A DNA stretch of 52,698 nucleotides. Source: Dehalococcoidia bacterium (GTDB lineage: Bacteria > Chloroflexota > Dehalococcoidia > SHYM01). Positions 1,446 to 47,395 of the stretch are shown here, in pieces. The DNA lies in the NCBI GenBank assembly GCA_009692805.1, contig SHYM01000002.1, forward strand, positions 1-52,698, given 5' to 3'. The notes beneath the pieces are model-generated. The model saw nothing but the letters and a program-made list of their open reading frames with translations, was not told where the DNA came from and searched no databases. The stretch's first letter is position 1. Each line of letters starts with the position of its first letter. A program made the translations under genes and the position numbers.

Positions 1446-1502
1446 GCCGCGACGCCCTAGTGTCCTGAATTGTTAATCCGCTGACTAGACCTGATCATAG
1501 AC

Positions 1503-1662
1503 TGCACAAAAAGTCTCGTTTTCTTCGATCTAGCTCTCCCCGAGCAGGCCCTCTACCATCACCCTGGCCCCCTTCCTGGCCAGGAAGGGGGTAATATAAA
1601 ATGGAGAGAAAGGGGGGCACCCCCTTTGGCCCCCGGCAGAGGGACAAGGCCCCTCTGCACTC
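1503..1662 (+). repeat. MITE-like modular repeat, copy R1 (terminus TGCACAAAAAG, hairpin CCCCCTTCCTGGCCAGGAAGGGGG, then GGAGAGAAAGGGGGGCACCCCCTTTGGCCCCCGGCAGAGGG..CCCTCTGCACTC)
   Basis: Three consecutive palindromic hairpins are visible. The same modules recur at 13.0, 14.7, 16.4, 23.4, 26.1, 28.7, 38.1 and 45.4 kb in both orientations. Confidence 0.85.
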
Positions 1663-1740
1663 TCCTCTAGGAGATCTTGCCCAGATTTGCCGGACTTTTG
1701 GAGCGAGGCTCCTTCAAGGAGAGGAGGGAGGCACAGGAAT

Positions 1741-8597: not shown

Positions 8598-8817
8598 GGC
8601 GAGTGTAGTCGTTCTCGCTACAGGTGCGGCCTTGGCGATCGGGCTCGGCGCGCTCACGAGGGCCAGATGGAGGGGAACCAGGCGCCGCCGGTCTGGATGG
8701 ATCGCGAGAAGGCCAGGTCGGGGTTATCGCGGCTCGCTGGCCCCATGGCGCTGGGCCGGGGCGGGGCGGCTGGTTTTCGGGGGCGCCGCTTGGGGAGGGG
8801 ACCTCCAAGGGACCGTG

Positions 8818-9414: not shown

Positions 9415-9620
9415 GGGCCGTCCGGCAGCCCCTCCGCCGTGGCGGCGCAACCTCGTGGTGGCGCGGCGAGCCGGGTTCTGTTAGACTAAACGAAGTGGAA
9501 TGAATCGGCAGACTGCCATCTTGACGGGTGCGGCACGGGATAACCAGCCACCTCCTGTTCCCCTCACACGATCCGCGCTGACCGACGAGTCCCAACTTTC
9601 TTCTCAAGGAGTCAGCTCGG

Positions 9621-10877
9621 ATGCCCCTTAGCGATTCGACCCCAGTAGACTCGTTCTCGTCCTTCGACCTTCACCCCGAAACCCGTAACGCGCTGGATGC
9701 CATGGGGATTTCGGTCCCCACCCTCATTCAGGCGCAGACTATTCCGGCCCTGCTCCAGGGCTGCGACGTCGTCGGCCAGGCGTGGACTGGGTCGGGCAAG
9801 ACCCTGGCCTTCGGGGTCCCCCTCGTGGAGCGCTGTGACGCCGCTGGGCGCGATGTCCAGGCGCTTGTCCTCGCACCGACCCGCGAGCTAGCCATCCAGG
9901 TCGGTGGGGTACTCGGCGCCCTGGCCACCGCGCGACACCTCAAACTGCTCCTGCTGTACGGTGGCCGATCCCTGGCCCCCGAACGTCAAGCCCTAGTGCG
10001 AGGCGCCCATATCGTGGTGGGCACACCGGGGCGAATCCTAGACCATCTACGACAAGGTAGCCTCGTTCTAAAGAGGCTGCGCTTCTTTGTCCTGGACGAG
10101 GGCGATGCGATGCTCGACCAGGGGTTCGCGCCTGATGTCGAGCGGATTCTGGCGTATACGCCGCCGCAACGGCAGACCGCCCTCTTCTCCGCGACCGTTC
10201 CCCCTTGGGTGATGGGCATGGCGGCCCGCCATCTTCGTAACCCCGTCGTCTTTCGAGCGCACGCCGAGATCGAGGCGGCACCCGATATCCACCACATTGT
10301 CTATCAGATGGAGATCAGCGCTAAGCTCGACGCCCTGCGGATACTGCTCGACAATCGGGACCGCGGAGCAACCCTCGTGTTTGGCCGGACCAAGCATGGC
10401 GTGGCCAAATTGGCCTTGCGCCTCGCCAGCCTGGGATACCCCGTGGCGGCGCTCCAAGGGAATCTGAGCCAGAACGCTCGCGAGCGCGTGATGGCTGACT
10501 TTCGGTCTGGACGCCTGCCCATACTGCTGGCTACCAACGTCGCTGCGCGGGGACTCGACATCGAAGAGGTGGGGCAGGTCATCAACTACGAGTTGCCCGA
10601 GTCGGCGCAGCTCTTCACCCATCGAGTCGGGCGCACGGGACGGATGGGCAGGAAGGGCAGCGCCATCACCTTTGTGACGCCCGAGGATAGCCGGAAATGG
10701 GGTCAGATCGAGCGGGAGTTGGGCCGCAGTCTGCCTCGGACACCATGGATCAACCGCGGGCTGCCACAGCCCATACGGGCGGCAGGCCCCTCGGTCCCGC
10801 CCCGCGCCCCTGGCCGCTCGCCCGCCCGCGCCCCCGGCCATGCGCCCGCCCGTCAAAGGAGCGGCGCCACCCGCTGA
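9621..10877 (+). CDS. DEAD-box ATP-dependent RNA helicase with variant motif II DEGD and an Arg/Pro-rich tail
   Basis: Contains the Q motif (F..PTLIQ), motif I AWTGSGKT, Ia PTRELA, TPGR, motif II VLDEGD, SAT, ARGLDI and HRVGRTGRMG. Confidence 0.9.
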   Translation: MPLSDSTPVDSFSSFDLHPETRNALDAMGISVPTLIQAQTIPALLQGCDVVGQAWTGSGKTLAFGVPLVERCDAAGRDVQALVLAPTRELAIQVGGVLGALATARHLKLLLLYGGRSLAPERQALVRGAHIVVGTPGRILDHLRQGSLVLKRLRFFVLDEGDAMLDQGFAPDVERILAYTPPQRQTALFSATVPPWVMGMAARHLRNPVVFRAHAEIEAAPDIHHIVYQMEISAKLDALRILLDNRDRGATLVFGRTKHGVAKLALRLASLGYPVAALQGNLSQNARERVMADFRSGRLPILLATNVAARGLDIEEVGQVINYELPESAQLFTHRVGRTGRMGRKGSAITFVTPEDSRKWGQIERELGRSLPRTPWINRGLPQPIRAAGPSVPPRAPGRSPARAPGHAPARQRSGATR

Positions 10878-10926
10878 CCTTCCCTGCCTGGGCCCGCCGG
10901 CCTTCCCCGGCCTGCCGCCTGCGCTG

Positions 10927-11685
10927 ACCAGCCGATGTCCTGTTCGACGGCGTCCAGGCCCTGCTACGCTCCCGTGCCTTCAAGAACATCCACCCCCGCC
11001 GTGCTGCTAGCAAATTCCTGCTGAGCGGGCTGGTGAAGTGTCGTAAGTGCGGCAAGGCCCTCATTGGACAGGACGCCAAGTCCGGAAGGTTCAGCTACTA
11101 CGTCTGCGGGACGCTGATTCGCAAGGGCGCTGGCACTTGTGAGGCCCCTTATCTTCCCAAGGGGAGCTTCGAGGGCTTGGTGGTGGACGCGATCAAGACG
11201 CGCATCCTGACTGAGAATGGCCTGAAGAGGCTGGCGGCGTTGGTCGCGGAGGAGATGGAGAGCGAGGGTGCCCAGGGGCGCCAGCATATGGACGCCGTAG
11301 AGGCAGAGCTTGCCGACGTTGAGCGCCGCCTGGGCAGGCTATACGAGGCCTTGGAAACGGGCAAACTCGCGCTGGCTGACCTAGCCCCGCGCATTCAAGC
11401 GCTCAGGCAGCGGCAAGAGCAGTTGCAACAGGCCAGGCAGGAGATTCAAGATGGCACCCGAGATAAGAGAAGGGAGATGTTAGACCTGCGGGCGGTCACA
11501 GCCTATGTGAATGACCTGAGGGCCGTCTTGACTGAGGGCAGCCTTGGGGAGCAGAAGGGGTTCATCAAGTCTTTTGTGAGGGAGATAGTGGTATCGCCGA
11601 CCCACGCGCTGCTGAGATACACCGCGCCTTTCCTACCAGACGCCGCCCAAGAGGAACGGGCAGGAGTTCTTTCTATTGTTCCTAG
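10927..11685 (+). pseudogene. 5'-truncated large serine recombinase (zinc-ribbon and coiled-coil C-terminal part only)
   Basis: The frame opens just after the TGA at 10924. The product reads ..FLLSGLVKCRKCGKALIGQ..GRFSYYVCG..GAGTCEAPY, followed by a long coiled coil (LADVERRLGRLYEALETGKLALADLAPRIQALRQRQEQL). The catalytic resolvase domain is absent. The frame then reads antisense through tRNA-Ala with no proper stop until 11863. Confidence 0.7.
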
Positions 11686-11761
11686 TGGTGGAGCTGAGGG
11701 GACTCGAACCCCTGACCCCTTGCATGCCATGCAAGTGCTCTCCCAGTTGAGCTACAGCCCC
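11686..11761 (-). tRNA. tRNA-Ala (anticodon GGC), CCA encoded
   Basis: I folded the cloverleaf by hand: GGGGCTG TA GCTC AACTGGGA GAGC A CTTGC ATGGCAT GCAAG GGGTC AGGGG TTCGAGT CCCCT CAGCTCC A CCA. The G3:U70 identity pair is present. Confidence 0.9.
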
Positions 11762-11849
11762 ACGGCGGAGGAGGTGGTGAGGAGCGCCAGCGCTGGGAGC
11801 CGGCTCCTGGCAGCAGCCGGGCACTGCCCTGGGCTCCCCTGGGACGAAC

Positions 11850-12809
11850 CTAGGGTATGCTAACAGAACTGCGCCGACCTCGCAAGCTAGCTGGAATGGC
11901 GGCGCCGCGCAGCTGGGCTAGCTCCTCCACGCCCTCCTGGCGCATGAAGGCCTGGATGCCTTCCAAGACCTCAAAGGGCGCCCGCGGGTTCCGAAAGGTA
12001 GCAGTGCCCACTTCGACCGCCGTCGCACCCGCTAGGATGAACTCCAGGGCGTCCTCGGCGGTGGCGATGCCACCGATGCCCACGATGGGGATTGCCACCT
12101 CCTGGGCTACGGCGTAGACCAGGGCCAGGGCAAGGGGCTTGATGGCAGGCCCCGAGAGCCCCCCGGTGACGGTGCTCAGCACGGGCCGCCGCCGTTTCAC
12201 GTCAATAGCCATCCCTACGAACGTGTTGACTAGGGAGATGGCGTCGGCTCCGGCCGCCGCCACGGCGGTGGCTACCTCCACGATGTCGCCTACGTTGGGA
12301 GTCAGCTTAGTCAGGATAGGCAAGGTGGTGCGCTGCCGGACCGCCGCTGTTAGCGCGGCTGCCGCCCGGGGGTCGCGCCCGAAGTCCAGCCCGCCGGCCA
12401 CATTAGGGCAACTGATATTCAGCTCCAGGCCGCTCACCCCTGGCACTGCCTCCAGGCTCTCCGCCAGGCTGGCGAAGTCCTCGATGCTCTCGCCCACGAT
12501 GCTCACTATCACCGGGACCGTCCAGGTCGCCCACACGGGGGCTAGCTCCCGGATGAGGACCCTGCCCCCGGGGTTCTGTAGCCCGATGGAGTTCAGCATG
12601 CCCGCCGCCGTCTCCACCATCCGGGGCTGGCGATTGCCCTTGCGCGGACGGCGGGAGACGCTCTTGCAAACGATAGCGCCCAGACGGCCCAGGTCGAAGG
12701 CCTGCGCGGACTCCAGCCCGAAGCTGAAGGTGCCGGAGGCCGTCATAACCGGATTCGCCAGGACCAGGGGTCGCTTGCCCCTGGGAGCCAGCTCCACCTG
12801 CAGGTTCAC
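11850..12809 (-). CDS. pyrD: Dihydroorotate dehydrogenase catalytic subunit (class 1)
   Basis: Contains NPVMTASGTF, GAIVCKSV, NSIGLQNPG, LELNISCPN and GIGGI. The GTG start is preceded by AAGGAGGG. Confidence 0.9.
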   Translation of the reverse strand: MNLQVELAPRGKRPLVLANPVMTASGTFSFGLESAQAFDLGRLGAIVCKSVSRRPRKGNRQPRMVETAAGMLNSIGLQNPGGRVLIRELAPVWATWTVPVIVSIVGESIEDFASLAESLEAVPGVSGLELNISCPNVAGGLDFGRDPRAAAALTAAVRQRTTLPILTKLTPNVGDIVEVATAVAAAGADAISLVNTFVGMAIDVKRRRPVLSTVTGGLSGPAIKPLALALVYAVAQEVAIPIVGIGGIATAEDALEFILAGATAVEVGTATFRNPRAPFEVLEGIQAFMRQEGVEELAQLRGAAIPASLRGRRSSVSIP

Positions 12810-13045
12810 CGCGCCCTCCTTGAAGCGAGCCCATGATAGCGGCCCCCGGGCGCGGGATTCAAGGGTGGTCAGAATCCGTATTCAGCTTTGCATCTGGCAC
12901 GCTTGATCTGAGACAGGATTTGCATGGAATTGTTCGGGTGCCTGCCACATCTCTGCGATCCTGAGTCCGCCGGAGGCGGGCGAAGGGGCTCCCTTACTCC
13001 CAGGTTCTCCGCTGTGTTCAGGATAGCGGGAGTGAAGAGGGCTGG

Positions 13046-13178
13046 CTGCCCTCTGCCGGGGTCAGGGGTGTCCCCTGAGGATGTCTTCCCCCCCTTCCTG
13101 GAAAGGAAGGGGCCAGGGGATGGTTCGCTGGCTTTTGAAGGCAAAGAGACTCTTTGAATGCCTTTTTTAGTTGCAAAG
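13046..13178 (-). repeat. MITE-like repeat copy R2 (hairpin CCCCTTCCTGGAAAGGAAGGGG, terminus CCTTTTTTAGTTGCAAAGC)
   Basis: 13112-13178 is the near-exact reverse complement of 26075-26140. Confidence 0.8.
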
Positions 13179-13180
13179 CA

Positions 13181-13222
13181 GGGTGCGCCCCCTTTCTCTC
13201 CCTTTTATATCAGGGCATCCTC
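13181..13222 (-). repeat. Adjacent partial copy (reverse complement of the GATATAAAAGGGAGAGAAAGGGGGCGCACCC module)
   Basis: Matches the module at 1592-1625, 26166-26200 and 45369-45405. Confidence 0.7.
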
Positions 13223-13300
13223 AGAGAAGAGCCGGCGCGAAGCCACGAGATTTCTGGGGCATGGATGCTGGAGGTGAGCATCTGTAGGTGAGGCTGCGCC

Positions 13301-13388
13301 TGGCGGAGAGGGCGGGATTCGAACCCGCGAGACCTTGCGGCCTACACGCTTTCCAGGCGTGCCTGATCGTCCACTCCAGCACCTCTCC
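13301..13388 (-). tRNA. tRNA-Ser (anticodon GGA), long variable arm, CCA encoded
   Basis: Reads GGAGAGG..CACGC CTGGAAA GCGTG TAGGCCGCAAGGTCTC GCGGG TTCGAAT CCCGC CCTCTCC G CCA. Confidence 0.9.
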
Positions 13389-13442: not shown

Positions 13443-13530
13443 TGGCGGAGAGGGCGGGATTCGAACCCGCGAGGCCTCACGGCCTACCGCTTTTCGAGAG
13501 CGGCACCTTCAACCACTCGGACACCTCTCC
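13443..13530 (-). tRNA. tRNA-Ser (anticodon CGA), long variable arm, CCA encoded
   Basis: Reads GGAGAGG..CCGCT CTCGAAA AGCGG TAGGCCGTGAGGCCTC GCGGG TTCGAAT CCCGC CCTCTCC G CCA. The T-arm and 3' acceptor strand (last 29 nt) are identical to those of the neighbouring tRNA-Ser. Confidence 0.9.
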
Positions 13531-14564: not shown

Positions 14565-14655
14565 CTTGCGCCCGGGATCTCCCCTTAGCCCACGCTGAGA
14601 AACGCCTGGTCATCGTCAGCCCATTTCCTTTGGGCCGCCGTCCCCTCTCTGCGCG

Positions 14656-14849
14656 CTTGCACAAAAATGGCATCCTGCTGGCCCGCCATAGGCGGGCCGA
14701 AGAGGGTGTCCCCCTTTCTCCCTTTTCAAACTACCCGTTCCTGGCCAAAGCCTGCCCTGAGCCTGCCGAAGGGAAGGGGGCCCGCCGAGGGCGGGTCGCG
14801 GGGGTACTCACGAAGAGAGCGTGGCCGGGAGAACGCGGCTTTGGTGCAT
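14656..14849 (-). repeat. MITE-like repeat copy R3 (termini CTTGCACAAAAA ... CTTTGGTGCAT)
   Basis: Shares TTGCACAAAAATGGCATCCTGC with 23411-23435. The CCCCCTTTCTCCC module and a degenerate CCTGGCCA hairpin are present. Confidence 0.7.
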
Positions 14850-14954
14850 AGCCCCCCGTCCGCCGAGCTGTGGCCAGCCTCCGAGCCCTGGGGCCGTGGC
14901 GCAGGTTGCAGTGATGGTAGGCGGGCTCGCCAACCCGTTCTACTCCTGGTGAGG

Positions 14955-16235: not shown

Positions 16236-16325
16236 CCAGCTTCCTTTGCCGATCCCCCGGTGTACCATCGTCGGGCTGCTCTTTGGCTCGGTGGCGCTGC
16301 ACGAAAAGGTGGTCAGCGTAGCGGG

Positions 16326-16480
16326 AGCGCAAAGGGCAACCGGCCCGGGGCCTGCCGTGAGCCCGCCGCAGGCGGGTCGAAGGGCGGGGTCAGGGGTGTC
16401 CTCTGAACATCTTCCCCTCCCCCTTCCTGGAAAGGAAGGAGACAGGGCAGACTCTGTGAATGCTACTCTTAGTGCAAGGC
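16326..16480 (-). repeat. MITE-like repeat copy R4 (GGTCAGGGGTGTCC hairpin, CCCTTCCTGGAAAGGAAGG hairpin, terminus CTTAGTGCAAGG)
   Basis: Collinear with 13046-13178. Confidence 0.75.
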
Positions 16481-16516
16481 TAGAGTCGGCTTAGAGATAG
16501 CAAGGGAGGTACCGCC

Positions 16517-17581
16517 ACGGCACGACAACGCCAACGCGCGCAATCCCTGGGTGCTACTGTAGGCCGGCGCAAGGTCTCCCGGTGGAGCACCGACCGCCGC
16601 CTGCGGCGGCTAGCCATCATCACCGGGGTTCTCGCCGTAGCCGCGGTGGCTGCGGTGCTGATCGTCGGCTACGTCCGCACCCTGGCCGGGCCCCTACGGG
16701 AACCTGTCGGCCAGGTGAACGACGTGGTCATAACCATGGGCGAGTACGTCAAACGCCTGCGGGTCTATGAGCTCAGCGTGAGGGGCAGCGGCCAGCAGCC
16801 GGACTACTCCCAAGTCCCCTTTACCCTGGTGTTCGGGATGCAGGACGAGGAGCTGATACGCCAGGGGGCCCCGCGGCACGGGGTTCGGGTGACTCCCGCC
16901 GAGGTGGAGCAGGAGCTACGGACGCGGGTCCTGAGAACACAAGGCCGGACGGAGAGCCCCGAGACTATCGACGCCGCCCATTTCAAAGAGATATACGCTC
17001 AGTTCCTCAGCGAGCTGAAGCTCAGGGACCCAGACTTTCGCCGTATAGTGGAAGGGGAGGTCCTGAGGGGGCAGCTCAAGGGCCTCCTGGCCCAGGACCC
17101 CGACCAGGTGCCGGCGGTGGCCGAACAGGTCCACCTGCGCGCCATCGTGCTGGGGACCCCCCAGGAGGGCCAGCCGACCGTCACGCCGGAGCAGGTCATC
17201 GACCGCCTGCGTCGGGGCGAGGATTTCGGCGCCCTCGCGGCGGAGCTCTCCTCCCATCGCTCTGCGCGCGACGGGGGCGACCTAGGCTTCAAGCCACGCC
17301 ACGTCTTGGCGGACGAGGTGGACCAAGTCGCCTTCTCGGCGCCATTCGGACCCGTCTACACGCCCATCGGCACCGGCGCAGGCTCCTGGATCATCGAGGT
17401 ATTGGCGAAGGATGAGAACCGCCGCGTGAGCGTGGAAGACTTCGAGGTCTTGAAGGAGTTCGCCCTCTCCAACTGGCTCCGGGAGCAGCGCAAGGAAGGG
17501 AAGAACACCGTCAAGATCTTCTGGGACTCGGGCCGCTACGAGTTCGCGGTGGAGCAGGCCCGTAGGATCAGGAAGACCTGA
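16517..17581 (+). CDS. Membrane-anchored parvulin-type peptidyl-prolyl isomerase (SurA/PrsA-like), apparent ACG start
   Basis: The PpiC domain reads HLRAIVL..GEDFGALAAELSSH.SARDGGDLGF. The track ORF (16646 GTG) would begin inside the only TM helix (LAIITGVLAVAAVAAVLIVGYV). The frame is open from 16484. AGGGAGG lies 7 nt upstream of the ACG at 16517, giving T-ARQRQRA, a basic N-terminus. The conservative extent is 16646..17581. Confidence 0.7.
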   Translation, partial: TARQRQRAQSLGATVGRRKVSRWSTDRRLRRLAIITGVLAVAAVAAVLIVGYVRTLAGPLREPVGQVNDVVITMGEYVKRLRVYELSVRGSGQQPDYSQVPFTLVFGMQDEELIRQGAPRHGVRVTPAEVEQELRTRVLRTQGRTESPETIDAAHFKEIYAQFLSELKLRDPDFRRIVEGEVLRGQLKGLLAQDPDQVPAVAEQVHLRAIVLGTPQEGQPTVTPEQVIDRLRRGEDFGALAAELSSHRSARDGGDLGFKPRHVLADEVDQVAFSAPFGPVYTPIGTGAGSWIIEVLAKDENRRVSVEDFEVLKEFALSNWLREQRKEGKNTVKIFWDSGRYEFAVEQARRIRKT

Positions 17582-21250: not shown

Positions 21251-21313
21251 GCCGCCGAGCTCGCTGGCAGACGGACAGATGATAGCTGGTGCAGATGAGG
21301 GCCCCCTGGAGCC

Positions 21314-23264: not shown

Positions 23265-23408
23265 CTTAGGTTTCGCCTTCGAGGGCGGAGTGCATGTCCA
23301 TGCTGCTAGACTCGATCTTGGGTGCCTGCCTGAGCGTTACTTAACGGACGTCTGGGCACCGTGGCCATGATGCGCTCGCTCGTGGGCAGGGTCAAGACGC
23401 CAGCCCGC

Positions 23409-23525
23409 TTTGCACAAAAGGGGCATCCTGCCGGGGGTCGAAGTCCCGACCCTCGGGATTCTGACCCTTTTCAGACCACCCCTTCCTGGCTATGAGAGGG
23501 ACCAGGGAGGGTCGCGTGCAAAGCC
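23409..23525 (-). mobile_element. MITE-like repeat copy R5 (117 bp) with inverted termini CTTTGCAC, flanked by a 12-bp direct repeat
   Basis: The left end reads TTTGCACAAAAGGGGCATCCTGCCGG. The right end reads GCGTGCAAAGCC. The flanks are ACGCCAGCCCGC (23397-23408) and ACGCCAGCCTGC (23526-23537). Confidence 0.65.
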
Positions 23526-23536
23526 ACGCCAGCCTG

Positions 23537-26043: not shown

Positions 26044-26070
26044 GTCTTCTCGTACTCAGGAGGCTGGATG

Positions 26071-26256
26071 GGCGTTGCACTAAAAGAGGCGTTCAAAGAG
26101 TCTCTTCGCCTTCAAAGCCAGCGAACCATCCCCTGTCCCCTTCCTTTCCAGGAAGGGGGTGATATAAGGGAGAGAAAGGGGGACACCCCCTTTGGCCCCC
26201 GGCAGAGGGAGGGCCCCTCTGCACTCCCTGTGTTCCGGCAGGATGCCCTCTCGTGG
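26071..26256 (+). mobile_element. MITE-like repeat copy R6 (186 bp) flanked by a perfect 15-bp direct repeat, inserted 27 nt upstream of the glmS start
   Basis: TCAGGAGGCTGGATG occurs at 26056-26070 and again at 26257-26271. The interior carries TTGCACTAAAAG, CCCCTTCCTTTCCAGGAAGGGGG and GGGAGAGAAAGGGGGACACCCCCTTTGGCCCCCGGCAGAGGG. Confidence 0.7.
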
Positions 26257-26390
26257 TCAGGAGGCTGGATGTATTTAACACCGACCAAGGCCGCCGCCAA
26301 GCGCCAGCGCTGCCCTACCTATGAAACCGGGTGCAGCGGCCGACCGCGCTGCTCCGACCTCTGGCCAGACAGGGCGCGGGGCTGACGCCC

Positions 26391-28585: not shown

Positions 28586-28652
28586 AGGTGAGGCCAAGCC
28601 ATCTCCTCGGTCGTGCTTCGGGGTAGTAATTATAGCATGCGGTCTGCGGTGG

Positions 28653-28875
28653 CTTGGCACAAAAAGTCGTCACGCGAAGGCCGGTCACCCTGAGTGAAGC
28701 GAAGGGTCTGGCTTCTCAGATTCTCGCTGTGCTCAGCATCACGAGCCACGCCCCCCGTATATCGTCACGGGGAGTCCATAGGGGCGCAGCCCCTCTCGCG
28801 GGGGGCCTGGGGGGTGTCCCCCCAACAGTTCTTTCTTCATCCCTCCCCTAGCAGGGAGGGCTAGGGTGAGGGCCT
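28653..28875. repeat. Composite repeat block R7 (CTTGGCACAAAAAG terminus, GTCACCCTGAGTGAAGCGAAGGG / GCTCAGCATCACG unit, GGGGGGTGTCCCCCC hairpin, CCTCCCCTAGCAGGGAGGG hairpin)
   Basis: Several palindromes share modules with the other copies. The block is entirely intergenic, between cmk and prfA. Confidence 0.7.
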
Positions 28876-28884
28876 TGGTATAAT
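28876..28884 (+). promoter_or_regulatory. Extended -10 promoter TGGTATAAT ending 8 nt upstream of the prfA ATG (predicted leaderless mRNA)
   Basis: TGgTATAAT spans 28876-28884 and the ATG is at 28893. There is no Shine-Dalgarno sequence in between. Confidence 0.45.
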
Positions 28885-28892
28885 CTGATGCC

Positions 28893-32026: not shown

Positions 32027-32040
32027 GCTCCCCTCCTGGG

Positions 32041-32506
32041 CTACTCCCTTGGCAAGGGGCCGGAGCTGCTGGCAAGCCTGGCCGGGGCGGGTTTCGACAT
32101 TGCCCTGCACGATTCGCTGTACGCCCACGTGCAGCTCTACCAGGAGATGGGGGTCCGCTTCCCACCTCACCGGATATACCAGGCGGGCGAGGAGGCGGGC
32201 CGGGTGCTGATCTTCCCGCCCAGCATCAGGAGGGCGGCCCTGCGCGATAGGATACCGAGCGCCGCCACCGCCTACGTCTCGGGCTGGGCGGTGGACTGGG
32301 GGACCAGCCGGCGCCTGGGGGTGGACGCCGCCTTCCCGCTCTCGGACCACGCCGATTACGCTGACCTGATCGCCTACGTGGAGCGGGTGCGGCCCCAGGA
32401 GGTGTATACCGTCCACGGCTTCGCCCAGGAGCTGGCCCGCGACCTACGGCTCAGGGGCTGGAATGCCCGGGCCCTGAAGAGCGGCCAGCAGCTCAGGCTG
32501 CTGTAG
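32041..32506 (+). pseudogene. C-terminal remnant (about 155 codons) of a ligase-associated DNA-damage-response exonuclease (beta-CASP / MBL fold)
   Basis: Reads YSLGKGPELLASLAGAGFDIALHD..LIFPPS..AYVSGWAVDWG..RRLGVDAAFPLSDHADYADLIAYVERVRPQEVYTVHGF..LRLRGWNA. The N-terminal HxHxDH half is missing. There is no start codon, and the upstream frame is antisense to the CoA-transferase gene. Confidence 0.65.
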
Positions 32507-33182: not shown

Positions 33183-33351
33183 GGAGCGGTGGTCATGCCT
33201 GAGCTTAAGCCGCTGGTCGCCACGCCGCGCCCGTCCCCCGGAAACGACCTGGGAGGTCATGTTCCGTTGGTGGTGAGCTTGTCGAACCACAGGGCGGACA
33301 ACAGATTGGCGGCCCGCGCCTTCACCTTTGCATCTTGCGTCGTACCCGAGG

Positions 33352-34683
33352 ATGGCTAGGGTGCCCGGTCCCCGGCCCCAACCCGCCAGCGGGCCCACGC
33401 TGAAGGACATCCAGGCCGCTCGGGCGCGCATCGCCCACGTCGCGCGGCCCACGCCCCTCATCTCCTCCCCCAGCCTCGATGCCATCCTGGGCTGCACCCT
33501 GCTGCTCAAGGCGGAGAACCTGCAGCGCACGGGCTCGTTCAAGGTCCGTGGCGCCGCCAACAAGATCGCCTGTCTGGGCGTCGAGGAGAGGCGCCGGGGG
33601 GTGGTGGCGGCCAGCGCGGGCAACCATGCCCAGGGGGTGGCGCTGGCGGCCCAAGTCGCGGGCATCCGGGCCGTTGTCGTCATGCCTCGTCATGCCTCCC
33701 TCGCCAAGGTCGCGGCGACCAGGGCCTACGGCGCTGAGGTACTCCTGCATGGCGATAGCTTCGATGACGCTCTGGTCAGAGCCCAGCAAGTGAGCCAGGA
33801 GCGAGAGCTGACCTTTATCCACGCCTTCGACGACGCCGCGGTGGTGGCCGGCCAGGGGACCATTGGCCTGGAGTTGCAGGAAAGCGCCTCCCAGGCCGAC
33901 GCCGTCCTGGTGCCGGTGGGTGGAGGGGGCCTTATCGCCGGGGTAGCGGCCGCGCTTAAAGAGTCCGGCTGCCGCGCCGAGGTCATAGGTGTCCAAGCGG
34001 CGGCGGCGCCGGCTCTGGCGCGCTCCCTTAGCGCTGGCAGGCTGCGGCCGGCGAGGCCCCGCAGCACCGTGGCCGATGGCATTGCCGTGGGCCACCCGGG
34101 CCCGCTCCCCTTTCAGCTCATCCGCCGCTATGTGGACCGCATGGTGGTGGTGGACGACGAGCTGATAACCCAGGCCATGGTCATCTTGCTGGAGCGGACC
34201 AAGCTGGTGGTGGAGGGGGCGGGGGCGGTGGGGGTGGCCGCCCTCCTGGGCGGCCTGGTCGAGGGCCGCGGGCGCCGAGTGGTAGCGGTGCTCAGCGGCG
34301 GCAACATCGACTCCAACCTCATCGCCCGAATCCTGGAGCACGGCCTGGCCCACGCGGGCCGCTATCTGGTCTTGCGGGTGGCTGTCAGGGACCAGCCGGG
34401 GCGTCTGGCGCGGCTGCTGGAGTGCATCGCCCAGGCCGAGGTGAACGTCCTGGAGGTGGCCCACCACCGCGCCGCTACCCACCTGCCCATCGGCATCGTC
34501 GAGGTGGAGGTCACCGTGGAGACCAGGGACGCCGCCCACGGGGAGGAGGTTTGCGCCCACCTGGAGCTCCACGGGTACTCCCGCGGTTCCCCCGGCCCGG
34601 GCCCCTTCGGTGTCCCCGTGCGCTACTTCGTGTCCAAGGAGGCGGAGTGGGAACAGCCCAGCCGGAGGCGAGGGGCCCGGTGA
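33352..34683 (+). CDS. ilvA: Threonine ammonia-lyase (PLP-dependent, with a C-terminal ACT-like regulatory domain)
   Basis: Contains TPLI..S, KAENLQRTGSFKVRGA, SAGNHAQG and GGGGL. I chose the ATG at 33352. Confidence 0.85.
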   Translation: MARVPGPRPQPASGPTLKDIQAARARIAHVARPTPLISSPSLDAILGCTLLLKAENLQRTGSFKVRGAANKIACLGVEERRRGVVAASAGNHAQGVALAAQVAGIRAVVVMPRHASLAKVAATRAYGAEVLLHGDSFDDALVRAQQVSQERELTFIHAFDDAAVVAGQGTIGLELQESASQADAVLVPVGGGGLIAGVAAALKESGCRAEVIGVQAAAAPALARSLSAGRLRPARPRSTVADGIAVGHPGPLPFQLIRRYVDRMVVVDDELITQAMVILLERTKLVVEGAGAVGVAALLGGLVEGRGRRVVAVLSGGNIDSNLIARILEHGLAHAGRYLVLRVAVRDQPGRLARLLECIAQAEVNVLEVAHHRAATHLPIGIVEVEVTVETRDAAHGEEVCAHLELHGYSRGSPGPGPFGVPVRYFVSKEAEWEQPSRRRGAR

Positions 34684-37934: not shown

Positions 37935-38008
37935 AAGAGCAGTCCCGGGGGTAATCCCCCACCACTGTGCTACCCAAGGGGCTTCGTCTAGGCAAGGGCT
38001 CAGGCCAC

Positions 38009-38203
38009 CTTGCGCGAAAATCGCATCTTGTCGGAACAGAGGAGTGCGGAGGGTCCTCCCCTCTGCCGGGGGCCAAAGGGGACGTCCCCCTTTCTCTTCC
38101 TCTCATAGTATCCCCTTCCTGGCCAGGAAGGGGGCGAGGGGGATAGTCGATCGCATCTCTCAGGGGAGAGCCAGATCGAAGAAAACGAGACGTTTTGCGC
38201 AAG
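38009..38203 (-). mobile_element. MITE-like repeat copy R8 (195 bp), full length with terminal inverted repeats and a flanking 10-bp direct repeat
   Basis: The left end is CTTGCGCGAAAA and the right end TTTTGCGCAAG (11 of 12 positions inverted-identical). The interior has all three hairpin modules and is the reverse complement of 1503-1662. GGCTCAGGCC occurs at 37997-38006 and at 38207-38216. Confidence 0.75.
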
Positions 38204-38209
38204 ACTGGC

Positions 38210-38584
38210 TCAGGCCGGAAGGCCCAGGTGTTTCCCCAGGACCTCGCCGATCTTGGGGAAGAAGTCGGAGCGCACCAGCACCTCGGTGCAGCCGCCCTGG
38301 CGGGCCGCCCGCAGCGCGGCGGGCTCGGTGTGGCGTCCGAAGGCGATCACGGGTGCGCGCGCGTTGCCTCCATGCACCTCCTGGACGACGGCGGCGGGAT
38401 CGAATCCTCCCACTTGTAGGTCTACCACCACCAGGTCGGGCGCGCCCGCGGCCAGCTTGGACGGCAGCTCGGCGGGGCTGCGGACCGCCACGCAGCGGAA
38501 CCCCCTGGCCTTGGCCGCCTCGGCGATCTGGATGCTGGAGTTGAAGTCAGCGGTCAGGGCGAAGATAGTCTTGCTCTCGCTCAA
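38210..38584 (-). CDS. Single-domain response-regulator receiver (CheY-like) with atypical active-site residues
   Basis: Has a (beta-alpha)5 pattern. The putative phospho-acceptor is in DLVVVDLQ. The N-terminal acidic pair reads TAD, and the T and K positions read G and R (AFGRH, LVRSDF). The TTG start is preceded by AGGAGGG. Confidence 0.7.
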   Translation of the reverse strand: MSESKTIFALTADFNSSIQIAEAAKARGFRCVAVRSPAELPSKLAAGAPDLVVVDLQVGGFDPAAVVQEVHGGNARAPVIAFGRHTEPAALRAARQGGCTEVLVRSDFFPKIGEVLGKHLGLPA

Positions 38585-39230: not shown

Positions 39231-39506
39231 ATGAAAAAGGCGCTAACCAAAATGTGCGACTATGTAGTTCGTGTCCAGGTCACGGCGCTTGAGGAGGGTG
39301 GGTTCTTGGCCACATGCCCGGACCTTCCGGGTTGTCGCGCCGAGGGCCGGAGCATTCCAGAGGTCCTGGACTTCATCAGCGACGTTGCCGAGAAAGTCAT
39401 CGGCTTGATGCAGGTCGAGGGTCTGCAAATACCTGAAAACATCAGGATGCACCGGAGGAGGGAGGCTCTCCAGAGTGAGATACTAGTATCAGTAGTCGGT
39501 GGATGA
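39231..39506 (+). CDS. hicB: HicB-family antitoxin (UPF0150 fold, short form)
   Basis: Reads YVVRVQVTALEEGGFLATCPDLPGCRAEGRSIPEVLDFISDVAEKVI. It overlaps hicA as ATGA. Confidence 0.8.
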   Translation: MKKALTKMCDYVVRVQVTALEEGGFLATCPDLPGCRAEGRSIPEVLDFISDVAEKVIGLMQVEGLQIPENIRMHRRREALQSEILVSVVGG

Positions 39507-39712
39507 CCTATGGAGAGTTAACCAGAAAGCTGCGCAGGCTCGGCTTCCAAATGTACCGGCGTGCTAAGGGTAGTCACGAAATTTGGTGGAACCCAAGCAC
39601 CAGAGTGCTCACAACCATCTCAGCCCACAAGGACCGAGAGATCCCGAAGGGCACCTTGGCGGATATTCTCAAGCAGCTTGGCCTGACGATTGATGAACTG
39701 CGGCGTAACTAA
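39503..39712 (+). CDS. hicA: HicA-family mRNA interferase toxin
   Basis: 69 aa. Reads ELTRKLRRLGFQMYRRAKGSHEIWWNP...IPKGTLADILKQLGL (the YcfA/HicA pattern with GSH). Confidence 0.85.
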   Translation: MTYGELTRKLRRLGFQMYRRAKGSHEIWWNPSTRVLTTISAHKDREIPKGTLADILKQLGLTIDELRRN

Positions 39713-39715
39713 GCC

Positions 39716-42106
39716 ATGACCACCACTATCGCGGCGCCGGGCCGCTTCCAGCTTGTCTCTGACTTCAAGCCCATGGGCGACCAGCCTCAGGCCATCGCCA
39801 AGCTGGCCGATGGCGTGAACCTGGGCCTGAAGTGGCAGACCCTGCTGGGAGTCACCGGCTCCGGCAAGACCTTCACCATGGCCAACGTCATTGAGACCGC
39901 GCAGCGGCCCAGCCTGGTGCTGGCGCCCAACCGCACCCTGGCCGCCCAGCTCTACTCCGAGTTCAAGGAGTTCTTCCCCCACAACGCCGTCGAGTACTTC
40001 GTCTCCTACTACGACTACTACCAGCCGGAGGCCTACATACCCCGGACCGACACCTACATCGAGAAGGACGCGGACATCAACGAGGAGATCGACAAGCTGC
40101 GCCACCGCGCCACCAGCGCCCTCTTCGAGCACCGCGACGTGATCATCGTTGCCTCCATCTCCTGCATCTACGGCCTGGGCGAGCCCAGCGAGTATCGCTC
40201 CTTCGTCATCGAGCTGGAGAAGGGGCAGCGCTACAACCGCGACAAGCTCGTGCGCCGCCTGATCGACCAGCAGTACGAGCGCAATGACGCCGACTTCACC
40301 CGCGGCCGCTTCCGCATCCGGGGCGACACCCTGGAGCTACGGCCTTCCTACGAGGACATCGCCCTGCGGCTCGAGTTCTTTGGCGACCAGTTGGAGCGCA
40401 TTGTGGAGCTGGACCCCCTCACGGGCGAGCTATTGAACGAGCGGGACCGCGTCGCCATCTATCCCGCCAAGCATTGGGTCACCAGCGCCGACAAACTTCA
40501 GCTCGCCATCGCCGATATCGAGCGGGAGCTGGCGGAGCGCGTGGCTGACATGAGCGCCAGGGGCAAGGTGCTGGAGGCGGCGCGGCTGGAGCAGCGCACT
40601 CACTACGACCTGGAGTCGATGCGCGAGTTCGGCTACTGCCCCGGCATCGAGAACTACTCCCGCCACCTCCAGCGCCGTCCCGTGGGCAGTCCACCCTGGA
40701 CACTGCTGGACTACTTCCCCGACGACTTCCTGCTGTTCATCGACGAGTCCCACATCTCCATCCCCCAGGCGCGGGGCATGTACCTGGGCGATCTCTCCCG
40801 CAAGGAAACCCTGGTGGAATACGGGTTTCGGCTGCCCTGCGCCCTGGACAACCGGCCCCTCTCCTTCCCGGAGCTGGAGGGGCGGCTGCACCAGGTCGTC
40901 TGCGTCTCGGCTACCCCTGGACCCTACGAGAAGGCCCGCTCCGAGCAGGTGGTGGAGCAGGTGATCCGGCCCACGGGCCTCCTGGACCCGACCATCGAGG
41001 TCAAGCCCACCGAGGGGCAGATAGATGACCTGCTGCATCAGGTCCGCGCACGGGCCCAGCGCGGCGAGCGCTGCCTGGTGACCACCCTCACCAAGCGCAT
41101 GGCCGAGGAGCTGGCCGACTACTTGCTCGAGATGGGCGTCAAGGTCCACTATTTGCACTCGGAGATCGACACCATCCAGCGGGTGGAGATCCTGCGCGAC
41201 CTGCGCCTGGGTATCTACGACGTGGTGGTGGGCATCAACCTGCTGCGGGAGGGGCTCGACCTGCCCGAAGTAAGCCTGGTGACCATCCTGGACGCCGACA
41301 AGGAGGGCTACCTGCGCTCGGGCGGCTCCCTTATCCAGACCATCGGCCGGGCATCGCGCCACGTGGAGGGCCACGTCATCATGTACGCCGACCGGGTGAC
41401 CGACTCCATGCGCCAGGCCATCGATGAGACCTACCGGCGGCGCGCCATCCAGCAACGCTACAACGAGGAGCACGGCATCAGCCCCCAGGGCATCAGCAAA
41501 GCTATCAAGGACCTCACAGACCAGGTCAGGATGGTGGCCGAGCAGGCGACGGAGTACCGCACGGACACCCGGCGCGCTGCCGTGGGCCAGATGGACAAGA
41601 GCGCCATCCTGAGGCTCGTCAAGGACTTGGAGTCACAGATGAAGCGGGCGGCGAAGGAGCTCCAGTTCGAGAAGGCGGCCCTCATCCGCGACCAGGTCAT
41701 CGACCTGCGCCGCGAGCTGGTGAGCATCGACGATGTTGCCATCGCCGCCCAGGGCAAGCCCTACTCAGGTTCTGCTCATCCTTCGACAGGCTCAGGACGA
41801 GCGGATGATATGACCGTTGGTGGTGAGCCTGTCGAACCACAAGCCCCTGGAATGCGTAGCGCCTACGCCTTCTACGAGCAGGCGCCGGAGACGCCAGCGC
41901 TCGAAGGGGAGCTGCCGCCGGGCTTGCTGGCCCTGGACGGCAAGAAACGCCGACGCCATTCTGCTAAAGCTGATGCGGCTCCCCCTCTGCCCCTGGGCGA
42001 GGGTAAGAGTGAGGGCGCATCGCCCCCGGACCGTCTCCTGGAGCACGAGACCAAGCGCTCTCTTTACAAGTCGGCCCGCAAGCTGGGGGGCCGCCGCAAG
42101 CGCTGA
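39716..42106 (+). CDS. uvrB: Excinuclease ABC subunit B with a C-terminal extension of about 126 aa built from repeat-element sequence
   Basis: Canonical UvrB runs from [17 protein letters not shown] through GVTGSGKT and the helicase motifs to the UVR domain ([20 protein letters not shown]). Homologues normally end 10-20 aa after that point. Confidence 0.95.
41782..41836. repeat. Palindromic element TTCGACAGGCTCA-N29-TGAGCCTGTCGAA inside the uvrB reading frame
   Basis: Perfect 13-bp inverted arms. Related half-sites occur at 33262-33292, 42352-42375, 46606-46650 and 46845-46871. Confidence 0.8.
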
Positions 42107-42329: not shown

Positions 42330-42351
42330 GTGCGTTCCATCCTATACCCTT

Positions 42352-42375
42352 GGCCCTGAGCTTGTCGAAGGGCGA
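42352..42375. repeat. Half-unit of the second repeat family (GGCCCTGAGCTTGTCGAAGGGCGA)
   Basis: Nearly identical to 46848-46871. Confidence 0.6.
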
Positions 42376-42463
42376 GCCGTGGCAAGCTGGGGCGCAGAGA
42401 ATAGGCTAGCCGCTGTCTTGTGACTGGCCTCGTGATAAGATTGCTGCTCGGAGACGTGCAACC

Positions 42464-44352: not shown

Positions 44353-45321
44353 ATGAAGGTCATGCGAGTGTCCGACTACGGCGGGCCCGAGGCGATGAAA
44401 ATGGAGGAGCTGCCAGACCCCAAGCCAGGCCCCGGGCAGGCACTGGTGAAGATTGCCGCCTGCGGCGTCAACTTTGTGGATATCTACCAGCGGTCGGGGG
44501 CCTACAAGCTGCCGCTGCCGCTTTCGATGGGGCAGGAGGGGGCCGGTGTGGTCGAGGCCGTGGGCGCCGGTGTCTCGGAGGTACGGGCCGGCGACCGCGT
44601 GGCCTGGACCGGAATCCAGGGCTCCTACGCCACCCACGTCGTGGCTCCCGCGGCGAGGCTGGTGGGGCTCCCGTCGCGCTTGACGTTCAACGACGGCGCC
44701 GCCGCCATGCTCCAAGGGATGACGGCCCACTACCTGGTGAACACCACCTACACGCTCAAGCGGGGCGACACCTGCCTGATCCACGCGGCCGCCGGAGGCG
44801 TGGGGCTCCTCCTGTGCCAGATGGCGAAGCGGGCCGGGGCACGGGTCATCGGTACCGCCTCCACGGAGCAGAAGGCGAAGCTCGCGCGGGAGGCGGGGGC
44901 GGACGAGGTCATCCTCTACAGCCAGAGCGACTTCGAGCCCGAGGTGAAGCGCCTCACTGAGGGCCGGGGCCTGCAGGTGGTCTACGACTCCGTGGGCAAG
45001 GACACCTTCGAGCGCAGCCTGAACTGCCTGGTCCCGCGGGGCTACCTGGTCCTCTTCGGCCAGTCCAGTGGCCCGGTCTCGGCCTTTGACCCTCAGGTAC
45101 TCAACGCCAAGGGCTCTCTGTTCCTGACCCGCCCGAGCCTGGGCCACTACACCGCGACCCGCGAGGAGCTGCTGCGGCGCTCCGGGGAGGTGCTGGGGTG
45201 GGCCGCCTCGGGGCAGCTCAAGCTGAGGATCGAAAAGGTGCTTCCCCTGGGGGACGCCGCCGAGGCCCACCGCCTCCTGGCCGGGCGCCTGACCACCGGC
45301 AAGCTTCTGCTCCTCCCCTGA
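44353..45321 (+). CDS. qor: NADPH:quinone oxidoreductase (zinc-independent MDR family)
   Basis: Reads GGPEAMKMEELPDPKPGPGQALVKIAACGVNFVDIYQRSGAYK, followed by AAAGGVG and GKLLL. Confidence 0.85.
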   Translation: MKVMRVSDYGGPEAMKMEELPDPKPGPGQALVKIAACGVNFVDIYQRSGAYKLPLPLSMGQEGAGVVEAVGAGVSEVRAGDRVAWTGIQGSYATHVVAPAARLVGLPSRLTFNDGAAAMLQGMTAHYLVNTTYTLKRGDTCLIHAAAGGVGLLLCQMAKRAGARVIGTASTEQKAKLAREAGADEVILYSQSDFEPEVKRLTEGRGLQVVYDSVGKDTFERSLNCLVPRGYLVLFGQSSGPVSAFDPQVLNAKGSLFLTRPSLGHYTATREELLRRSGEVLGWAASGQLKLRIEKVLPLGDAAEAHRLLAGRLTTGKLLLLP

Positions 45322-45330
45322 GGACGCCAT

Positions 45331-45482
45331 CGACCATCCCCCTGCCCCCTTCCTAGCCAGGAAGGGGGTAATATAAAAGGGAGAGAAAAGGGGGACACCC
45401 CCTTTGGCCCCCCCGGCAGATCCCGAGCATCGGGACTCTGCACTCCCCCAATTGCCGGTGGGATACCCTCTTTGTGCAAAGG
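45331..45482 (+). repeat. MITE-like repeat copy R9 (hairpin CCCCCTTCCTAGCCAGGAAGGGGG, GGGAGAGAAAAGGGGGACACCCCCTTTGG, terminus CTTTGTGCAAAGG)
   Basis: Collinear with 1560-1662 and 26130-26230. The left terminus is missing. Confidence 0.8.
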
Positions 45483-45577
45483 CGGCTAGGGGTACGATAG
45501 TCTCACCATGAACTGCAAACCCTCTCCCTTGAAGGACGAGGGTCGGCCAAGTAAAGGGCCCAAGTAGAGGGAAGAAC

Positions 45578-46597: not shown

Positions 46598-46671
46598 GCA
46601 AGGGGCACCGTTTGTCCTTCGACTGGCTCAGGAGAACGGACGACATACCATCTGACCACAGGAGAAGGTAG

Positions 46672-47253
46672 GTGATGGTTAACGTAGCAGTCCCGGTTGC
46701 CGTCGCCCTTATTCTCGTGGGCGTGGCTTGCAACGTACCTGCCCAGCCCCCGACTGCTGCGCCAGCGCCAGTCGCCGTCGTCCCAACTGCCACGTCCGTG
46801 CCGGCGCCCATCGCCGCCCCACCAACCCCCAGCCCCACCGCTTCCGTTCGCCCTGAGCTTGTCGAAGGGCGTGCCCCTGTCGCCGTGGCCCTCCGGGGCA
46901 GAGTGTATCGTTTAGAGGTGGTGCGCGCCGGCGAGCCCGGCTATTTCAAGGGCTTGGGCGAGAGGGACGCCCTTCCCCTTGACCGGGGGATGCTCTTCCT
47001 GGAGAGCCAGGACGTGGCCATGACCTTCTGGATGAAGGGTATGCGCTTTCCCCTGGACCTCATCTGGATAGACCGGGCGGGCCGGATCGTCCATGTGGAG
47101 CGCAACGTACCCCACCAGCCGGGCGTGCCCCACAGCCAACTTCCCATCTATCGTCCACCCAGGCCCTCCCGTGCCGTGCTGGAGCTGAACGCGGGCCAAG
47201 CGGACGCCCATGGTTTCCAGGTTGGAGACCAAGCGCTCTTCAGCTACGACTAG
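46672..47253 (+). CDS. DUF192 domain protein with an N-terminal membrane anchor and a Pro/Ala-rich linker
   Basis: Reads GLGERDALPLDRGMLFLESQDVAMTFWMKGMRFPLDLIWIDRAGRIV..AVLELNAG. The linker contains the repeat-derived SVRPELVEGRAP. Confidence 0.8.
   Translation: MMVNVAVPVAVALILVGVACNVPAQPPTAAPAPVAVVPTATSVPAPIAAPPTPSPTASVRPELVEGRAPVAVALRGRVYRLEVVRAGEPGYFKGLGERDALPLDRGMLFLESQDVAMTFWMKGMRFPLDLIWIDRAGRIVHVERNVPHQPGVPHSQLPIYRPPRPSRAVLELNAGQADAHGFQVGDQALFSYD
46845..46871. repeat. Second-family repeat unit (CGTTCGCCCTGAGCTTGTCGAAGGGCG) embedded in-frame in the DUF192 gene linker
   Basis: The same core occurs in the intergenic copy at 42352-42375. Confidence 0.65.
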
Positions 47254-47289: not shown

Positions 47290-47395
47290 ACAAGCGTAGA
47301 AAACGAGTCTACATACCCCTTCTCCCCTGGAGGTAGAAGGCTGGGATGAGGGGGAAGGCGTCCACCCTCACCCTGGCCTCTACCTTCAAGAGAGA
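47290..47395. repeat. Degenerate repeat block (GAAAACGAGTCT fragment plus imperfect inverted repeat GGTAGAAGGC..GCCTCTACC around GGGATGAGGGGG/CCCTCACCC)
   Basis: Shares short modules with R1, R8 and R7. Lies between convergent genes. Confidence 0.4.

Follow-up and report, generated by a model that had tools for sequence, protein, structure and literature searches.

Within a 52,698-nt stretch of DNA from a Dehalococcoidia bacterium (contig SHYM01000002.1; hereafter ‘the window’, ~67% G+C and carrying housekeeping genes) we describe a dispersed family of short hairpin-rich repeats, the copies of which are very probably those of a non-autonomous DNA transposon—a bacterial MITE (miniature inverted-repeat transposable element)—of an uncultured groundwater Chloroflexota lineage. 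The family is new; the kind of element is well known and does not amount to a new kind of system. Small size, a lack of coding capacity, terminal inverted repeats (TIRs), target-site duplications (TSDs), dispersed copies and insertion polymorphism are all found, and it is the combination of TIRs, duplications and presence/absence with respect to a sister strain that marks the copies out as mobile, non-autonomous TIR elements. The original prediction, made from the window alone, had already proposed a dispersed ‘MITE-like’ element; to this can now be added TIRs of 15 nt, TSDs of 9 bp, strain-specific presence or absence, and clean empty sites.

The repeat family is real and nine of the ten sites listed in the original prediction are related: all-against-all comparison of the ten with the window by blastn links nine and reveals no further copy, and an nhmmer profile of 201 positions, built from ten copies, recovers the same nine with E-values of between 4e-5 and 3e-53. 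The tenth, 47290–47395, has to be withdrawn, its sole blastn match being that of 47318–47395 to its own reverse complement (73%), with no match to the profile. A repeat finder, taken with the ten sites, shows the modules that had been described—the terminus (C)TTGCAC(A/T)AAAA, the palindrome CCCCTTCCTGG..CCAGGAAGGGG, then GGAGAGAAAGGGGG-ACA-CCCCCTTTGG and GGCAGAGGG..CCCTCTGC—and the label ‘modular’ is borne out by variants that combine the same termini with different interiors. The segment 38009–38203 is, as stated, the reverse complement of 1503–1662 (83% over 162 nt), with both termini present.

The consensus, drawn from the best copies of the window and of related metagenome contigs, is ~202 bp long (GGCTTTGCACAAAAATGGCATCCTGCCGGAATAGAGGGAGTGCAGAGGGG-loop-CCCCTCTGCCGGGGGCCAAAGGGGGTGTCCCCCTTTCTCTCCCTTTTATATTACCCCCTTCCTGGCCAGGAAGGGGGCCAGGGGGATGGTCGAGGGCATCCTCAGGGGAGAGCCAGATCGAAGAAAACGAGACTTTTTGTGCAAGGCC), individual units ranging from 48 to 300 bp. 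Alignment of 23 termini on their TGCAC core defines a 15-nt TIR with the consensus GGC(C/T)TTGCACAAAAA, positions 5–15 of which are conserved in 16–22 of the 23. Between the two ends (T1 and T2) lie three GC-rich hairpins: H1 (GCAGAGGGG/CCCCTCTGC), H2 (AAAGGGGG-TGT-CCCCCTTT) and H3 (CCCCCTTCCTGG/CCAGGAAGGGGG). The pattern CCAGGAAGGGGN{8,20}GAGAAARGGGG, a core that links two of the modules, is found four times in the window against none in 100 shuffles, and the H1 and H3 patterns six and 14 times against at most 0.1; both of these motifs are confined to family copies, save for one chance-like H3-pattern match at 52516, with H2-like motifs occurring additionally at two unrelated sites (3686 and 37947). 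The termini persist in deletion derivatives of 48, 120 and 160 bp—among them a TIR–TIR ‘mini-element’ of 48 bp (L012 1163–1210) and elements of 120 bp at 23406–23525 of the window and at 16447–16566 of the sister-strain contig L026, the latter with a different hairpin unit—as well as in the mosaic variants at 12885–13232, 14653–14853 and 28651–28884. No Pfam-bearing open reading frame (ORF) lies inside the units, and the open frames of the element (all six consensus frames joined) have no counterpart among 5.8 billion proteins, the single match to this six-frame query being weak and of low complexity (E 1.8e-5, 29% identity). Spurious ORFs do run across the copies, as had been suggested.

Of nine two-ended copies, five have direct repeats of 8–15 nt (10, 9, 15, 8 and 9 nt) that abut the element precisely at its boundaries, the chance of a shared run of at least 8 nt being 0.003 per copy (20,000 random flank pairs from the window). 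With the terminus held in a fixed register, as four bases plus TTGCAC, the duplication becomes 9 bp in four copies: GGCTCAGGC at 38006 (positions 37997–38005 and 38207–38215), ACGCCAGCC at 23406 (23397–23405 and 23526–23534), GGAGCAGGC in the contig L018 and, with one mismatch, (C/A)GCTAACCC in L009. The duplications are G+C-rich, and the five targets give a hint of a preference for GCYNARSC.

Contigs of a sister strain (ERZ909605 k127_439227, a groundwater metagenome contig of 41.7 kb; JGI 3300027819; NCBI GCA_900218215.1) were reached through a metagenome scan and look-ups of RF-1 and DeaD orthologues; exact-protein look-ups with S18 and the REC protein gave no further sister DNA, the one contig they yielded (1.4 kb) being from the window's own strain. 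The sister is collinear with the window over 6.2–34.8 kb, at 91–94% nucleotide identity across most conserved blocks, and all five of the window copies that can be compared are absent from it (12885–13232, 14653, 16292, 23406 and 26071). At 23406 and 26071 the sister's sites are cleanly empty, each with the target present once (GACGCCAGCCCGCTACC at the former); the junctions at 12885–13232, 14653 and 16292 are less tidy. The reciprocal case occurs between aroA and gmk, where the sister carries a 160-bp copy (L021 3531–3692 / L033 16407–16568; nhmmer E ~1e-44) and the window only a degenerate remnant with an internal deletion (21252–21298, 46 nt, forward strand) that keeps ..ATGATAGCTGG..TGCAGA.. 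of the T1 side. The family is recently or currently active, and whether the differences arose by gain or by loss, their structure is that of transposon insertions. Strain-specific copies differ from each other by 12–34%, far above the divergence of the strains, such that the source copies must already have been diverse beforehand.

This polymorphism, together with the target duplications, also bears on the idea that the copies are a family of structured non-coding RNA genes, or fragments of one. The strong conserved secondary structure would suit such genes; against them stand not only the duplications and the strain differences but also the occurrence of copies in both orientations relative to transcription, the lack of a promoter consensus in the two copies scanned, and the Rfam results, where no family scores above threshold on a copy (the best reaching 25.5 bits where the gathering score is 58.6) and only tRNAs pass in the window. 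We regard this explanation as very improbable.

Among known intergenic repeats, Correia elements (Neisseria), ERIC/IRU and RUP resemble the present family as non-coding, TIR-bounded units of ~100–200 bp that lie between genes, may be co-transcribed and fold into hairpins. In those elements it is the long TIRs that pair into the hairpin; in ours the structure arises from three separate palindromes in the interior. Correia and RUP moreover duplicate TA, rather than the 9 bp seen here, and none of these elements is known to share sequence similarity with our family. A MITE of the Correia/RUP (IS630-like) type was accordingly ruled out, the duplications being of 9 bp and G+C-rich, not TA. BOX elements of Streptococcus pneumoniae share a mosaic build from a few modules in differing numbers; they are not known to have TIRs or TSDs of the present type, nor to be related in sequence. 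REP sequences are 20–40 bp long, with GTAG or CGTC heads (two super-families) and neither TIR nor TSD, and are linked to RAYT transposases (PMC3733652). Spread of REP/REPIN-type palindromes by a RAYT (IS200/IS605-like Y1) transposase might be entertained, since ours, like REP, BIME and REPIN, are GC-rich extragenic palindromes, dense in intergenic DNA, of which they make up a large share, and often inside operons. Our units are, however, bounded by 15-nt TIRs and 9-bp duplications, their hairpins lack GTAG/CGTC heads, the window holds no Y1 transposase, and the H1 and H3 motifs stay within family copies with the one H3 exception given above; we therefore give this possibility hardly any weight. 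The comparison with REP/BIME, ERIC and Correia elements made in the original prediction survives as a functional analogy only; neither GTAG/CGTC heads without a TSD nor a TA duplication is seen.

How might such a MITE move? In the scheme we favour, a DDE transposase encoded elsewhere in the genome would bind the termini and insert the element with 9-bp staggered cuts in the target; genic insertions would be purged, leaving survivors confined to intergenic DNA, and the copies would then decay through terminal erosion and internal deletion. The enzyme would most likely be of the IS5 family, IS903/ISAba12 type, a transposase acting in trans that we propose because both the TIR and the 9-bp duplication resemble those of ISAba12/MITEAba12 and IS903. 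In ISfinder, ISAba12 falls in the IS903 group of the IS5 family, and IS903 itself makes a 9-bp target duplication; its end, GGCTTTGTTGAATAAATC, was recovered beside annotated IS5-family transposase genes in E. coli. The likeness to IS903 extends to the GGCTTTG start, the first 7 nt only, and IS903 differs in being a 1,057-bp autonomous insertion sequence (IS) of Enterobacteria. For ISAba12 and MITEAba12 of Acinetobacter, the former being the proposed parent of the latter, the TIR is GGCTTTGTTGCACAAA and the TSD 9 bp (PMC6382973, Table 2); MITEAba12 is 113 bp long and 78% A+T with a variable core, shows no orientation preference, and has been described fused to the 3' end of a gene, where it supplies the stop codon (PMC6382973). 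The family described here is likewise a non-autonomous, non-coding MITE with short TIRs, in which a GGC start is combined with TTGCACAAA (GGCTTTGTTGCACAAA there, GGCYTTGCACAAAAA here), and it too has a 9-bp duplication, no orientation preference and a 3' fusion that provides a stop codon (in ADH_zinc). It differs in its length (~200 bp), its G+C-richness, its three conserved hairpins and its phylum; its TIR is 3 nt shorter than that of ISAba12 between GGC and TTGCAC, no co-resident parent IS was found, and its copies are much denser (nine in 53 kb). An ISL3-family origin (GG ends, 8-bp TSD) was set aside because the TSD in fixed register is 9 bp and the ISAba12 TIR matched better.

Several observations weigh against this account and are best considered together. 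Four of the nine two-ended copies have no recognisable duplication, and the copy at 26071 combines a 15-bp duplication (TCAGGAGGCTGGATG, at 26056–26070 and 26257–26271) with a degenerate T1 end, a pairing that a fixed 9-bp stagger does not explain. Some of the absences in the sister could be precise losses, through slippage from one 9-bp repeat to the other, and not gains in the window lineage. No autonomous partner, and no transposase, was found in the window or in ~120 kb of related contigs: Pfam searches of candidate ORFs, beyond those annotated in the gene tables of related contigs, gave no transposase domain in the window (as the original prediction had it), in the sister gene tables or in the tested ORFs of L012, L018 and L009, and a search for TIR pairs 0.8–3 kb apart revealed no partner either. 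Finally, the likeness to the ISAba12 TIR covers only ~12 nt with a 3-nt gap, so that assignment to IS5/IS903 counts as a lead rather than a result. We would put mobilisation in trans by an IS5/IS903-type DDE transposase, as opposed to one of the other families that make 8–9-bp duplications, at a roughly even chance.

The alternative is that the elements are indeed MITEs, mobilised by a transposase of some other family; candidates, with ends starting in GG and duplications of 8–9 bp, include ISL3, IS256, ISH6, IS1595 and IS4. That the duplications measure 8–10 bp when no register is fixed, that the tie to the IS903 group consists of those ~12 terminal nucleotides with their gap, and that no partner was found would all be compatible with this; the occurrence of TTGCACAAA after the GGC start, along with a duplication of exactly 9 bp in fixed register, fits the ISAba12 group best among the TIRs checked. 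We view the alternative as possible, if somewhat doubtful.

The interior of the MITE poses a separate question. Conservation reaches 0.93 in H3, 0.86 in H2 and 0.75–0.85 in the stems of H1, as against 0.28 in the H1 loop and 0.57 in the CT/AT spacer. RNAalifold predicts 31 pairs, with 96% of cells paired across 11 copies, and single copies fold 2.7–2.9 standard deviations better than shuffles on either strand (for 38006–38206, −88.8 kcal/mol, z −2.9); in two copies the inner H1 has been swapped for a different palindrome, GTCCCGA..TCGGGAT, that still pairs. Because the stems are so much more conserved than loops and spacers, they may be under some constraint, perhaps for transposition competence or through a mild host-level effect on transcripts.

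A bolder view would hold the three-hairpin interior to be a functional ‘payload’, selected by the host and acting on neighbouring transcripts as stabiliser, roadblock, terminator or insulator, much as REP/BIME or Correia elements do; the survival of copies between co-oriented genes would then be due to host-level selection and not to tolerance alone. The folding, conservation and palindrome exchange just described speak for it, as does the position of several copies inside apparent operons (ispH-glmS, REC-255aa, rpsR-PPIase). Set against this, orientation is unbiased, a compensatory change is found in just two of the 31 pairs, and the sister strain is without all five testable copies, so that none can be required at those loci; transposition requirements, or palindrome-driven self-correction, could equally conserve the stems, the near-invariance of which also renders covariation uninformative as to whether they function as RNA or as DNA. 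Promoter and terminator consensus scans of two representative copies found nothing. Action on transcripts of this kind appears unlikely to us, and the RNA-level role in mRNA stability or termination raised by the original prediction is possible but unsupported. We are similarly sceptical of the wider proposal that the cassette is a selected payload either needed by the transposition machinery or serving as a bidirectional RNA-stability/insulator module spread between genes. Were it correct, a cassette needed for transposition would be unusual for a MITE of the TIR/DDE type, and strain-specific insertions (for instance the one 27 nt before the start of glmS, or that separating rpsR from the PPIase gene) would rewire operon expression in this lineage; if the cassette does affect transcripts, insertions become a source of regulatory divergence between strains.

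The window is 14% intergenic; the nine copies occupy 25% of that fraction and 3.5% of the whole. All lie in this intergenic fraction with the exception of a 25-nt overlap, so that the earlier statement that every copy is intergenic holds in general but not for 45297–45483, which covers the final 25 nt, stop codon included, of the ADH_zinc gene. Seven copies sit between co-oriented genes (pyrD/tRNA-Ser; hyp214/tRNA-Arg; rpsR/PPIase; MFS/tenA; ispH/glmS; 255-aa/REC; ADH/AKR), three in sense and four in antisense orientation relative to these neighbours; that at 1497–1712 lies between convergent genes and that at 28651–28884 between divergent ones. The operon placements that had been suggested hold, as apparent operons, for ispH/glmS and REC/255-aa but not for 28653–28875, which separates the divergent cmk (−) and prfA (+).

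RF-1 and DeaD homologues place the organism within Chloroflexota, its few recorded close relatives among ‘Chloroflexi/Dehalococcoidia bacterium’ metagenome-assembled genomes (MAGs) being the sister (93–94% amino acid identity), followed by others at 80–84% and then ~66–72%. The family is lineage-restricted. Searches with the core pattern found it in nine loci of JGI/ENA metagenome contigs (about six of them distinct, 65–69% G+C); in GTDB representative genomes it was absent bar two matches, in an Aminicenantes and a Propionibacterium MAG, which fall outside the family profile and were dismissed as chance. IMG/VR viral contigs gave no match, nor did PLSDB plasmids by blastn with the consensus. 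Closer to home, a relative with an RF-1 84% identical (L030) has a variant H1/H2 unit only, and a Dehalococcoidia MAG with a DeaD 80% identical (L037) has no copy in 21 kb.

Taking the copies in order along the window, the first (1497–1712, reverse strand) is full-length, with its T2 terminus, TAGACTGCACAAAAAG, at 1497 and a degenerate T1 terminus near 1712; nhmmer aligns 1502–1700 (E 8.6e-51), identity to 38042–38201 in reverse complement is 83%, the neighbours are the convergent Ldh_2 and RNaseH-MoaC genes, and no flanking duplication can be recognised. The site originally given as 1503–1792 contains this full copy but is composite, the rest being a separate fragment (1711–1792, strand not assigned) with a variant H1/H2 hairpin pair (GGGGGGACACCCCCC...) and no recognisable TIRs, 71% identical to 28771–28855 in reverse complement and similar to a unit at ~5960–6030 of L030. 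The second of the two genes here, a single 316-aa ORF (1866–2816) upstream of a MoaA-like radical-SAM gene, joins an N-terminal RNase H to a C-terminal MoaC; if the ORF is real, this predicted fusion would be unusual.

Further along, a copy with an extra internal module (12885–13180, forward strand) runs from a T1-like terminus, AGCTTTGCAT, at 12885 to a T2 terminus, TTTTAGTTGCAAAGCA, ending at 13180 (nhmmer 13020–13168, E 1.6e-17), between pyrD (−) and tRNA-Ser (−). Abutting it is a fragment of a second copy (13181–13232, forward strand; nhmmer 13181–13212, E 8e-4) comprising the 3' half of H2, the spacer and the post-H3 segment, H3 itself being deleted; the sister has 103 bp of unrelated sequence here, where the window has 391 bp. 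Tandem tRNA-Ser genes (13301–13388 and 13443–13530; anticodons GGA and CGA), 142 bp apart and 77% identical, immediately adjoin this cluster. The next copy (14653–14853, forward strand), upstream of tRNA-Arg, is a variant with both termini (GCGCTTGCACAAAAATGGCA ... TTTGGTGCATAGCC) in which a GGCCCGCC..GGCGGGCC hairpin stands in place of H1 and a CTGAGCCTGCCGAAGG unit interrupts H3 (nhmmer 14694–14848, E 2.9e-12); positions 14646–14919 of the window correspond to 5 bp in L033. Another variant (GGCGCTGCACGAAAAGG ... CTTAGTGCAAGGCT; 16292–16482, forward strand; nhmmer 16319–16446, E 4e-5) separates rpsR from the PPIase gene, L033 having no counterpart of 16291–16485 and the junctions being partly decayed. 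A 1392-bp Logan contig (SRR8561391; L031), whose 3' tail (rpsF-ssb-rpsR) was compared and matches the window, stops within this copy, consistent with repeats breaking short-read assemblies.

The short two-ended copy of 120 bp (23406–23525, forward strand; nhmmer 23419–23520, E 1e-6) is found between an MFS gene (−) and tenA (−), and the copy between ispH (−) and glmS (−) (26071–26256, reverse strand; nhmmer 26074–26256, E 6e-46), with an intact T2 terminus and a degenerate T1, is the one that stops 27 nt short of the glmS start codon. Between cmk (−) and prfA (+) is a composite (28651–28884, strand not assigned; nhmmer 28767–28884, E 2.6e-6) in which a terminus of the T2 type (GGCTTGGCACAAAAAGTCGT) is combined with a long, unrelated hairpin unit (GTCACCCTGAGTGAAGCGAAGGGTC...) and an H1/H2 pair of variant form; its terminus, along with the first hairpin unit, resembles the 120-bp element of L026. 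It takes the place (window 28648–28856) of 2.3 kb in the sister (L026 7677–9964) with two extra genes of 360–374 and 95 aa, neither with a Pfam match. Directly upstream of prfA, a hairpin plus GGCTAGGGTGAGGGCC, then TTGGTATAAT (an extended −10-like box), is kept in the sister although all sequence upstream differs (window 28840–28892, L026 9925–9990).

The best-preserved full-length copy, of 201 bp (38006–38206, forward strand; nhmmer 38007–38203, E 3e-53), lies between the 255-aa gene (−) and the REC-domain gene (−). The last (45297–45483, reverse strand; nhmmer 45305–45482, E 4e-44) is truncated on the T2 side and has its T1 terminus, CTTTGTGCAAAGGC, at 45470–45483; the ADH_zinc gene (44353–45321) takes its final ~9 codons and its TGA stop from the T2-subterminal part of this copy. 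The non-member (47290–47395, strand not assigned) is a palindrome of ~80 nt, imperfect and flanked by the convergent DUF192 and HpcH genes; taken as 47290–47398, it has the motif CCCTCACCCT(G/A)GCC in common with the region upstream of prfA and may be a bidirectional terminator-like structure.

With this family, a MITE that is active now or was so recently is documented for an uncultured lineage of groundwater Chloroflexota, a group whose mobile-element biology is almost undescribed; our understanding of how MITEs work is unchanged by it. Of some interest are the high density of the copies, their high turnover, and an interior whose three hairpins are unusually well conserved. In practical terms, the copies give rise to spurious ORFs, have altered the 3' end of at least one gene (ADH_zinc), and probably break short-read assemblies; since all five comparable copies differ between strains that are 91–94% identical, they would also make sensitive strain markers.

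The window holds other repeats besides. A second short dispersed class, CTGAGC-N-(G/C)TCGAAGG, gives six matches (14757, 28690, 41780–41845, 42347–42378, 46616–46631 and 46844–46875) against 0.1 in shuffles, and reads as ‘..LSLSKG..’ or ‘..FDKL..’ in spurious ORFs; two of the sites are inside MITE variants, a pair falls in a ~130-codon 3' extension of the uvrB ORF (796 aa, with the UVR domain ending at residue 666), and the DUF192 ORF has one in its 5' part. Also outside the MITE family is a 205-bp insertion with respect to the sister (33183–33388) between nitroreductase and PALP (threonine-synthase-like) genes, which in the sister overlap at GTGA; the insert contains the motif CCGTTGGTGGTGAGCTTGTCGAACCACA, found again at 41814–41841 (96% identical), and part of it is 77% identical to L030 5073–5132.

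The two strains differ in gene content too. Beside tRNA-Ala (11686–11761) the window has ~675 bp more than the sister (10828–11686), and an ORF here (11033–11863) has an N-terminal Zn_ribbon_recom domain (E 8e-10) without catalytic domains; it has the look of a relict integrative element of the serine-recombinase type at a tRNA gene. The sister, for its part, carries between prfA and the PHP_C gene a three-gene island (L026 11220–15308, also in L027–L029; absent from the window at ~29950) encoding DruA, a protein with a weak NurA-like match and a DUF87/HerA-like ATPase, probably a defence island. Upstream of deaD it has a further ~1.4 kb with extra small genes, as well as a gene for a hydrolase of peptidase_S9/S15 type (359 aa), located at L033 2421–3869 and 4697–5954 and missing from the window at 8603–8623 and 9432–9458. 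Its metallo-beta-lactamase/RMMBL gene encodes 324 aa (L026 17914–18975), as against an RMMBL fragment of ~125 aa in the window (32032–32506), where ~590 bp are missing. Lastly, directly upstream of uvrB, the gene table of a same-sample ENA contig, and only that table, shows a 69-aa HicA-toxin-like gene (~39503–39712).

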